Of a stretch of DNA of 64,000 bases, positions 21,020 to 22,124 are shown piece after piece (the first letter of the stretch is position 1; every line of letters starts with the position of its first letter). Below the pieces are notes generated by a model, which was not told the DNA's origin, did not search any database, and saw only the letters and a list, made by a program, of their open reading frames with translations. The stretch is taken from the IMG/VR virus record IMGVR_UViG_3300035492_000062, positions 32,925 to 96,924 of that record; one strand, written 5' to 3'. A program made the translations under genes and the position numbers. The stretch comes from a virus.

Positions 21020-21646
21020 ATGGCTACAAAAATGACATTGACTCGTGCACTTGCTAAACTGAAAACCTTAGATGCACGTATCGCTTCTGCGGAAGTAGGT
21101 AAACTGTTTGCATACAAAATTGGTGCTCGATTGGCTAATACCAATCTATCTGAGCAAGATTTTTCAAAAACAGTCCAATCAACTTGGGATGAGGTTAATG
21201 ACTTGGTTCAGCAACGAGTCAAGATCAAATCTGCTATCATGAAGGCAAACTCAGAGACTTATCTGACTGTTAATGGTGAATCTATGACTATTGCTGATGC
21301 AGTTGCTCGTAAAGAGTTCTCGACAGTCCATCGTACACTGTTGACTAAGACGATTACAACTCACAATACAATGCTACGAGATGTCACCAAACACAACCAA
21401 GGCGTTTCTGAGCGTCTTGATAAGATGTTGGAGTCTTTGGTTGGTAAAGATAAGAAAATGGCTGAGGGTGAGTTTGAGGCTGTTTCTAAGCCATTCTTAG
21501 CTCAAAATGAGGCTACCTTGTTAGATCCTCATGCAGTGTACAAGAAAGCTGGAACACAGCTAGAAGAGTTAGAGAAGTTTTTGGCTGAAGTTGATTTCTG
21601 CTTGTCGGAGGTTAATGCTAAAACTGAGATTGAAGTTGCCATTTAA
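21020..21646 (+). CDS. Alpha-helical/coiled-coil conserved phage protein upstream of the ncRNA candidate
   Basis: MTLTRALAKLKTLDARI...IKSAIMKANSET...MTIADAVARK...VDFCLSEVNAKTEI. Confidence 0.75.
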   Translation: MATKMTLTRALAKLKTLDARIASAEVGKLFAYKIGARLANTNLSEQDFSKTVQSTWDEVNDLVQQRVKIKSAIMKANSETYLTVNGESMTIADAVARKEFSTVHRTLLTKTITTHNTMLRDVTKHNQGVSERLDKMLESLVGKDKKMAEGEFEAVSKPFLAQNEATLLDPHAVYKKAGTQLEELEKFLAEVDFCLSEVNAKTEIEVAI

Positions 21647-21651
21647 TCTCA

Positions 21652-21659
21652 GGTAAATA
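21652..21659 (+). promoter_or_regulatory. Late-type promoter (NNTAAATA) directly before the ncRNA candidate
   Basis: GGTAAATA ending 3 nt before the 5' arm of the closing stem. Confidence 0.45.
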
Positions 21660-21662
21660 AAT

Positions 21663-21968
21663 TTGCAATTGTTTTGGTGAATTTCCTAAACAACTGAGCG
21701 TTAAGGGGAAGCTGCTCTTGAAGAAACCCCAAACCAACTATTTAATGGTATTTAAATAAAGATAGTGGTGTCAGTGAGTGTATCTCACGACATCACCCAA
21801 CTCTTAAAGTTTAAATTTTAACCATGAAAGTTGATAAGTTCAAATCTGAAACATTAACCTTTAAAACGGCAAAATGGTAAAGATGAAAACTCATAAAATC
21901 CGGTGGTTATGCAAATGAGGTGTAGGTTATGACCTTGGAAGGCTATCCGGCAACCAAACTGATTGCAA
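21663..21968 (+). ncRNA. Candidate structured non-coding RNA (~305 nt)
   Basis: No ORF; 21663-21678 TTGCAATTGTTTTGGT pairs with 21953-21968 ACCAAACTGATTGCAA; internal hairpins; A-rich quasi-periodic tract; terminator follows. Confidence 0.65.
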
Positions 21969-21979
21969 CCTTTTCAAAT

Positions 21980-22009
21980 CAAAAGCCTGAGAAATATCTC
22001 AGGCTTTTG
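21980..22009 (+). terminator. Rho-independent terminator
   Basis: CAAAAGCCTGAGA-aata-TCTCAGGCTTTTG, 13-bp perfect stem. Confidence 0.85.
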
Positions 22010-22060
22010 TCTATCTAAACAGTCAAAAATTAATTTCTTCATAAAATCTGCATTCTATAC

Positions 22061-22089
22061 TAGACACAAGTCGGAATTTCGTGTACTAT
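22061..22089 (+). promoter_or_regulatory. sigma70-like promoter
   Basis: TAGACA-17 nt-TACTAT. Confidence 0.6.
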
Positions 22090-22124
22090 GTTATTAAAGA
22101 AACGAAAGATAACATGGAGATAAA

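Follow-up and report, generated by a model that had tools for sequence, protein, structure and literature searches.

A heptad array of fixed length and unit order in a predicted pseudoknotted RNA of phages and bacteria

An array of heptads is found in the 478-nt gap devoid of ORFs (21647-22124) that separates two plus strand genes of the viral DNA analysed here, a stretch of 64,000 nt hereafter called the window. As judged by comparison of homologous loci, the array makes up the central part of what appears to be a structured, pseudoknotted ncRNA of about 300 nt, spanning approximately residues 21663-21968 of the plus strand. The feature apparently selected in it is a U-Y-A..G core repeated at 7-nt spacing, and not A-richness as such. 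The array may function as a fixed-size platform on which multiple single-stranded sites are offered to an oligomer of the protein encoded by the adjacent gene, a reading that is favoured here tentatively. The features of the region are listed in Table 1.

Table 1. Features of the gene-RNA region in the window
Feature	Position	Strand	Remarks
Gene for a 208-aa helical protein, candidate RNA partner	21020..21646	+	phrog_1491 match; DUF6847/DIP1984-like
Closing helix P1, 5' strand	21663..21679	+	pairs with 21952-21968
Pseudoknot helix, probable 5' strand CCUA	21685..21688	+	probable placement, by eye
Hairpin 7 nt 5' of the array	21765..21796	+	MFE -18.2 vs -7.3 kcal/mol for shuffles
Heptad array, 96 nt, ~14 units U-Y-A-R-N-G-N, 3' end AUAAAAU	21804..21899	+	periodicity, unit profile, position conservation
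Helix Px, 5' strand, directly abutting the array	21900..21904	+	pairs with 21946-21950
Pseudoknot helix, 3' strand UAGG, inside Px	21923..21926	+	columns 582-585
Helix Px, 3' strand	21946..21950	+	pairs with 21900-21904
Closing helix P1, 3' strand	21952..21968	+	pairs with 21663-21679
G+C-rich palindromic hairpin, likely bidirectional intrinsic terminator ending the RNA	21979..22008	+	read from sequence; fold

The periodicity of the array is not due to chance, nor is the array a tandem repeat. The power spectrum of the A indicator, calculated over positions 21803-21902, has a peak at 7.25-7.5 nt with a power of 16-17, and no power was found in the array at a period of 3 or, the peak being at 7.3 nt, of 5-6 nt. 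In a sliding 100-nt scan of the whole 64 kb the tract features the top periodicity for any base (A-power 23.4 at 7.3 nt), and the second-best independent region reaches a power of 12.0 in the same scan of the four bases. The maxima of 60 simulated windows, in which dinucleotides were preserved, average 12.7±1.5, the highest being 17.9. All the 13 units listed in a previous reading of the DNA, made from the sequence only, are present in the window. The same reading had judged the tract too degenerate for a tandem repeat or a CRISPR. Tandem Repeats Finder, run with a minimum score of 30, gave no rows at the array, and the judgement is therefore correct. The bounds then assigned to the tract, 21803-21902, hold for 21804-21899, and the residues at 21900-21902 already belong to helix Px. 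An ORF of 18 codons (21825-21881; MKVDKFKSETLTFKTAKW) is located inside the array. It lacks a Shine-Dalgarno sequence, its frame is not kept in homologues, and it is most likely fortuitous; a coding reading was rejected because a 7-nt period cannot keep a reading frame.

The period is conserved in homologous loci. Downstream of the gene, the best A-period falls at 6.9-8.0 nt in ~70 of 84 viral loci, with a median power of 13.5; in the upstream control, which is three times longer, periods are scattered from 5 to 12 nt and the median power is 8.9. Of 80 bacterial loci, 77 have at least six units within a 110-nt stretch 3' of the gene. The sequence-only reading had indicated a periodicity not conserved in related phages as the observation that would speak against it, and the viral loci reveal the reverse. 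The unit profile, refined on 364 sites from 40 RNAs, corresponds to the heptad U1 Y2 A3 R4 N5 G6 N7. Frequencies are 84-98% for U1, 98% for A3, 89% for A4 (98% if any purine is considered), 72% for A5 and 62% for G6. The spacing of neighbouring units is exactly 7 nt in 203 of ~330 pairs in the set of 40 RNAs, and in 514 of ~815 pairs in a set of 95 RNAs. In a Symbiobacteriaceae genome with 62% G+C the register is kept by units such as CUCAGCC, CUCAAAG, AUCAAGG and AUCAGUG, and A-richness is lost. Survival of the register as UCA..G in this context argues that the pattern is selected, and is not an effect of composition. Units had been described as centred on AA(A), a view to be corrected, since the conserved core is U-Y-A(R) instead, and A-richness disappears at 62% G+C.

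Length and order of the units are also fixed. Measured from U1 of the first unit to the CC opening helix Px, the array is 95-98 nt long in 59 of 95 RNAs (the set includes 46 viral and 49 bacterial sequences) and 96 nt long in the window. In 36 aligned RNAs its alignment-defined length is 98-102 nt, with the exception of three RNAs with inserted hairpins. The first heptads are almost gap-free in all 36, and invariant A's correspond to window positions 21807, 21813, 21820 and 21827. Arrays of exactly 96 nt (n=24; 10 viral and 14 bacterial, the window array included) can be stacked without gaps. A-blocks are found in these at positions 3, 10, 17, 24, 31, 38 and 46; in the 3' half, a U-rich linker at about position 53 is followed by A-blocks at 61, 68, 75 and 82, then by UCGAU, and then by the block at 93. 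In both the 36-RNA alignment and the 24 stacked arrays conservation differs by unit position, which points to a fixed unit order. Not all units are alike: a U-rich linker often takes the place of unit 8, or a hairpin is inserted in it, and unit 13 reads UCGAU. A model of 14 equal sites is therefore too tidy.

Three predicted helices flank the array in the alignment of the 36 RNAs. In P1 (columns 130-142/622-634) changes at both sides were found at 12 of 13 pairs, and 91.8% of the cells are paired. Px (columns 554-558/616-620) is 99.4% paired, with both-side changes at three of five pairs. The pseudoknot helix (columns 160-163/582-585) shows covariation at 4/4 pairs across the family. In the three helices as a whole both sides change at 19 of 22 pairs, and 92.5% of the cells are paired, against 60.4% upon shuffling and 33-46% when the partner is slid by 1-3 columns. 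The window row is gapped in the alignment at the 5' side of the pseudoknot, and its CCUA/UAGG pairing was placed by eye. G-U pairs are frequent in the flanking helices, being found for example in 31 of 36 sequences at columns 142/622, and the transcribed strand is therefore fixed as the plus strand. A hairpin of variable sequence precedes the array in most family members, at a median distance of 7 nt. The array is plausibly clamped between this hairpin and Px, within a loop closed by the pseudoknot and by P1. The palindromic hairpin found further downstream has a perfect 13-bp stem, with A-runs upstream and U-runs downstream. This putative terminator separates the RNA from the promoter region of the next gene.

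Comparison of homologues supports the notion that the array is single-stranded and lacks conserved base pairing. The 96-nt window array folds alone at -13.1 kcal/mol (z -1.63), and the stability of 55 distinct homologous arrays does not exceed that of their shuffles (mean z -0.38). RNAalifold returned no consensus pairs on the 24 gap-free arrays. Antiparallel pairing between the two halves of the array was also considered, and discarded as no consensus pair was found. Stack searches and mutual information detected no pairing partner for array columns above background in the 36-RNA alignment: the top mutual information of these columns, 0.8 with canonical pairs at 50%, is just as high as the maximum of the background, and true helices score 1.0-1.8. 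When single sequences are analysed by ViennaRNA, ~57% of array bases are predicted as paired; those pairs are not conserved. The tract had previously been described as poorly self-pairing, and the z values of the window array and of its homologues, together with the lack of consensus pairs, agree with this. Its supposed single-strandedness is likewise supported by the homologues, no array column being found to covary.

Relatives of the region surfaced only by tblastn and by profile searches. No match was obtained by blastn of the region against 50,697 phage records, or by a single-protein locus search in IMG/VR. The profile search led to 80 IMG/VR loci, and tblastn with the protein to 654 phage records. 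Carriers in the latter set include T5-like Demerecviridae, Otagovirus, Bacillus Bastille-like phages, Klebsiella and Erwinia phages and one Clostridium phage. In Pseudomonas phage Boevelstad, Pectobacterium phage Bobbio, Escherichia phage slur09 and Bacillus phage Deep Blue the homologue of the gene is followed by a gap of ~400-560 nt, either unannotated or nearly so, in which ..UCAAAG.. units are found, and then a terminal ..AUAAAAUCC.. sequence. Bacterial stretches with the protein gene, of which 184 have been confirmed, belong to Bacillaceae, Paenibacillus, Brevibacillus, Clostridia, Calothrix and other cyanobacteria.

R1, a covariance model covering the 3'-most units and the 3' domain, was seeded by viral sequences only. 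It matches 78 of 80 bacterial loci, always on the strand of the gene and just 3' of it, and gave no other matches. The window scores 41.4 bits with R1, the window sequence being itself in the seed alignment. P1 and Px of the window fit the family, as does its array, which is 96 nt long (95-98 nt expected), has the expected end AUAAAAUCC and directly follows the gene. Three whole genomes host exactly one copy each. Among 121 genomes of one family, 20 have the RNA and 22 the protein, side by side in 19 cases. In Bacillales the module is flanked by unrelated genes, encoding an amino-acid permease, a subtilase, a two-component system or a transposase; the gene-RNA pair is therefore a self-contained module.

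A few loci deviate from this scheme. Genome G020 (locus L167, G020:C1:2119800-2122300) hosts a complete RNA at ~1640-1900, its heptad array intact, and no protein gene upstream; no match to the protein was found genome-wide at E up to 0.001. Either the gene has been recently lost, or the RNA is able to act alone. In G027 an extra partial copy (L168, G027:C16, 1767-1872) includes the 3' domain only, most of the array being gone. This copy, located 6 kb from the complete module and just after an ORF of 532 aa, is probably a remnant. In G062 the RNA is present, though missed by the speed filters of the model.

The protein encoded in the window matches phrog_1491 at 1.8e-49. Its AF2 model (pLDDT 91.5) features long helices (residues 45-79, 91-141, 149-163 and 173-201) and a small four-stranded sheet formed by both termini and a hairpin. 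The only fold match standing out is 3KDQ (Foldseek E 3.5e-4; Z 12.7 over 150/152 residues), a DIP1984-family protein of unknown function, consistent with weak sequence matches to DUF6847 and DIP1984. K15, R66, K70 and K98 are among the conserved residues, and two conserved SNAxT motifs are located at helix ends next to the small sheet. Known RNA-binding domains were not detected in the protein by Pfam-type domain searches, and only relatives of unknown function were retrieved from Pfam, NCBIfam, PHROGs, PDB (searched by sequence and by fold) and the ESM Atlas. A match to DUF3418 (HrpA C-terminus), found in one of 68 family members and below cut-off, is attributed to chance. The label of 'tail fiber' attached to phrog_1491 and to many GenBank records is probably wrong, because the gene is also found in non-prophage chromosomal contexts, is followed by the RNA, and encodes a 3KDQ-like fold. 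The same probable mislabelling extends to the homologues in L005 and L006.

In many phages, as in cyanobacterial arrays, the module is flanked by tRNA genes, which are missing from the surrounding 2.5 kb in most loci of Bacillales. The only tRNA genes detected in the window phage (Met, Arg, Met; G000:C1:29301-29788) are 25 kb upstream of the RNA, and the window module is outside any tRNA island, unlike that of many relatives. In several loci of Clostridia and Bacillales a tRNA gene follows the 3' end of the R1 match within ~15-90 nt (14, 46, 90 and 91 nt); tRNAs so located are found in L139 (3569-3641), L143 (3631-3705), L119 (3504-3576) and L127 (3472-3545). In L075 an Rfam tRNA match (2268-2341) is located between the protein gene and the array, and replaces the 5' domain of the other members. 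A tRNA-like sequence, seen by eye only, occupies a similar place between gene and array in L043 (~2345-2420). The location of the tRNA in L075 and of the tRNA-like sequence in L043 hints at co-transcription and processing of the RNA with tRNAs. Other sequences were noted close to the module. A drum RNA (RF02958, 47.7 bits, above cut-off) is found ~0.8 kb downstream of it in L055 (2910-3017), a contig matching Clostridium phage D-1873. In Brevibacillus fortis (L091, 4154-5050) a gene encoding an AbiEii-like nucleotidyltransferase, of a type IV toxin-antitoxin family, is located ~1 kb downstream of the module.

The RNA is uncatalogued: it corresponds to no Rfam family, and no paper on either the RNA or the protein was found in the literature. 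No match at gathering score was obtained in the window with Rfam 15, families such as GOLLD, ROOL, YrlA and tmRNA included, and ARAGORN detected nothing in the window. At E up to 10, Rfam gave in the window only chance sRNA matches, aligned to the terminator alone. The gathering-score matches obtained in homologous loci (20 viral and 18 bacterial) are limited to tRNAs, a single drum RNA and a single PreQ1 riboswitch, none of which overlaps the RNA. The best overlap with RAGATH-27 (RF03100), involving the 5' part of the RNA in genome G001, reaches 26.5 bits (E 0.4), well short of the 76.1 bits required; an equal match is found elsewhere in G001, and none in the window at E up to 10. Several classes of repeat-bearing RNAs were compared and set aside. 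A sponge of the CsrB/RsmZ type would carry multiple GGA motifs, mostly in hairpin loops, and here UYAAAG units are in RNA predicted to be unpaired, with no Rfam match to CsrB or Rsm families. ToxI-like RNAs of type III toxin-antitoxin systems have repeats of ~34-45 nt and are located upstream of the toxin; in the present case units are 7-nt long, the RNA is downstream of the gene, Tandem Repeats Finder gives no rows, and the protein is a helical bundle related to 3KDQ. HutP-type sites, made of NAG plus 4 nt in two sets of three, differ in core (here U-Y-A(R)..G) and in number of units (here ~14), and the adjacent protein, the only one tested, is helical and has no Pfam match to HutP. TRAP targets (9-11 GAG/UAG with 2-3-nt spacers) do not fit a period of 7.3 nt with none at 5-6 nt. 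As to the array, the heptad consensus, the invariant core and the length of 96 nt and order of units, which comparison indicates as fixed, are new, and so are the comparative proof that it is unpaired and its reading in terms of HutP or TRAP.

If the array is a platform for the co-encoded protein, each binding site of an oligomer would recognise one UYA(R)..G unit, the co-encoded protein being the most probable reader. Loading on a track of fixed size would lead to a particle of defined stoichiometry, and the principle would be that by which triplet arrays wrap the TRAP ring or both faces of a HutP hexamer. Binding of the protein to the array, its identity and the stoichiometry are what we infer. 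A landing strip for a protein oligomer had been proposed in the sequence-only reading, with the upstream helical protein as a possible binder. Of that proposal, the conserved array, apparently single-stranded, and the gene next to it (78 of 80 bacterial loci) are borne out, and adjacency (the same 78 of 80 loci, and 19 of 20 RNA-positive genomes) indicates that protein as the best candidate; the binding is presumed. Against the platform reading stand the fold of the protein, matching only 3KDQ and with no known RNA-binding domain, the intact RNA found without the gene in G020, the ~57% of array bases predicted to be paired when sequences are taken singly, and the non-uniformity of the units. 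The array might rather bind a host factor, instead of or besides the co-encoded protein, and be a decoy or a sponge for a single-strand RNA-binding protein or a nuclease, such as S1, RNase E or a defence endoribonuclease cutting A-rich sites; the helical protein would then be only a chaperone or a stabiliser. RNAs working as sponges by means of repeated single-stranded motifs are well established (CsrB, CrcZ). Many carriers are lytic phages, where the RNA lies within a tRNA cluster, at its side, or adjacent to a gene for an RNA ligase, a placement that would suit a role against RNA-targeting defence, and the solo RNA of G020 could be accounted for. However, sites are variable and interchangeable in sponges, and the present RNAs keep the number of sites, the length of 95-98 nt and the order unchanged, whether in Proteobacteria phages, in Bacillales or in cyanobacteria. 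In bacterial chromosomes, moreover, the module is interspersed with unrelated housekeeping genes, and the lack of period-3 power argues against (ARN)n sites for the distal face of Hfq. Binding of a host factor is in our opinion unlikely, and the decoy for a host defence factor already imagined in the sequence-only reading fits less well with the fixed number, length and order of the units and with chromosomal, non-phage settings.

The heptads could alternatively work at the level of RNA only, by establishing tertiary or intermolecular contacts of the A-minor type, leading to a compact fold or to a homo-oligomer like ROOL or GOLLD, or serve as a measured spacer. Fixed length and conserved unit order, the pseudoknotted core and the existence of a solo copy in G020 would suit such a role, and large phage-associated RNAs encoded beside tRNA genes self-assemble. 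The hypothesis is rather improbable. No receptor-like columns covary with the array, A-richness is dispensable, UCA..G alone being kept in the GC-rich host, which is a poor fit to A-minor contacts, and the strict linkage to one protein gene is left unexplained; a mere spacer, in turn, would not keep U1 and A3 at 84-98%. Pairing of the heptads with anticodon loops, by which the array would be a rack holding or shielding tRNAs, is very improbable. UYAAAG is complementary to C32-U33-U34-U35-R36-A37 of Gln, Lys and Glu UUN tRNAs, units and anticodon loops have the same length, tRNA clusters are close to the RNA in many phages and cyanobacteria, and a tRNA gene directly follows the RNA in some loci of Clostridia and Bacillales. 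This pairing is disfavoured because the A opposite the invariant U33 would be A5, whose conservation (72%) is the lowest among the A's and which disappears in GC-rich hosts, with G/N at positions 4-5. In addition, tRNA genes are lacking within 2.5 kb of most Bacillales modules, the window phage has only three, 25 kb away, and the formation of six base pairs with a closed anticodon loop is sterically doubtful. Location of the array in an AT-rich gap without ORFs would be in line with a DNA-level feature, be it iterons of a replication origin, an array for a DNA-binding protein, or bent DNA. Such an element is excluded in practice, the residual probability being negligible, because covariation is strand-specific: the flanking helices covary with G-U pairs, and pairing is found only in plus strand RNA. 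The element has the same orientation with respect to the gene in every locus and is also found in bacterial chromosomes, and a 7-bp spacing is out of phase with the helical repeat of DNA.

The platform reading may be extended, with more doubt. The array could be the assembly track of a previously unrecognised RNP, in which ~14 ordered heptads would load a closed DUF6847-like oligomer, made for example of 14 protomers, or of 7 each using two SNAxT half-sites, and the particle would have a role in tRNA metabolism or translation, or in phage-host conflict. Its carriers would be T5-like and many other large phages, usually within tRNA islands, as well as Bacillales, Clostridia and cyanobacteria. 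Arrays of motifs with strict 7-nt spacing, fixed length and fixed unit order are rare, and the one described here is kept from the relatives of coliphage T5 to Bacillus, Clostridia and cyanobacteria. Such strictness in spacing, length and order implies that both size and symmetry of the partner are defined. Should the array load a defined oligomer, it would be a third and much larger example of the principle exploited by TRAP and HutP, hosted in a stand-alone RNP rather than in an mRNA leader, and oligomer loading could explain a conserved component of phage tRNA islands. Since the pair is present in T5-like relatives of model phages and in Bacillus, which is easily handled, biochemical tests are straightforward.

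A close likeness is with the HutP site in the hut terminator RNA of Bacillus subtilis (PMC2425495), where single-stranded motifs plus spacers similarly form 7-nt units, superimposable on a symmetric oligomer. HutP reads XAG followed by a 4-nt spacer, with three such 7-mers per hexamer face, and the site consists of two sets of units joined by a linker, one set for each face (PMC2425495). Units 1-7 of the heptad array are split from units 9-14 by a U-rich linker or an inserted hairpin, in a fashion recalling the two HutP sub-arrays. In contrast to the HutP site, the array is hosted in what appears to be a stand-alone pseudoknotted ncRNA, and not in an mRNA leader terminator; a role in attenuation is not indicated, because downstream genes differ between loci. 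In the trp leader, 11 (G/U)AG triplets in unpaired RNA wrap the ring of TRAP (MtrB), one motif per subunit, and the length of the array matches the size of the oligomer. TRAP sites differ in period (5-6 nt) and motif, are bound by a beta-sandwich 11-mer, and are cis-regulatory. Repeated motifs hold many copies of one protein also in the sponge sRNAs CsrB/RsmZ (GGA) and CrcZ (A-rich CA). In these, motifs are located in hairpin loops or are irregularly spaced, their number varies by species, and the target is encoded elsewhere, whereas spacing, number and order are fixed in the heptad arrays.

The association of a structured ncRNA with an adjacent protein gene, patchily distributed in bacteria and found also in phages, is reminiscent of Rsr (Ro60) and Y RNA/YrlA. 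In the present case no TROVE protein, Rfam match or tRNA-like domain was detected, and Y RNAs have no heptad array. The operator of T4 gene 32 consists of a pseudoknot followed by unpaired A/U-rich UUAAA/UAAA repeats, a stretch that nucleates cooperative binding with a site size of ~7 nt. The combination of a pseudoknot with an unpaired, repetitive A/U-rich stretch is shared with the RNA described here. The T4 element is directly upstream of the start codon and autoregulates translation, and binding to it is largely independent of sequence; the present RNA is instead followed by a putative terminator and controls no ORF, and its units are conserved in sequence and position. The array can thus be classed with a known general kind of element, the motif array for an oligomeric RNA-binding protein, here found within an uncatalogued RNP module.
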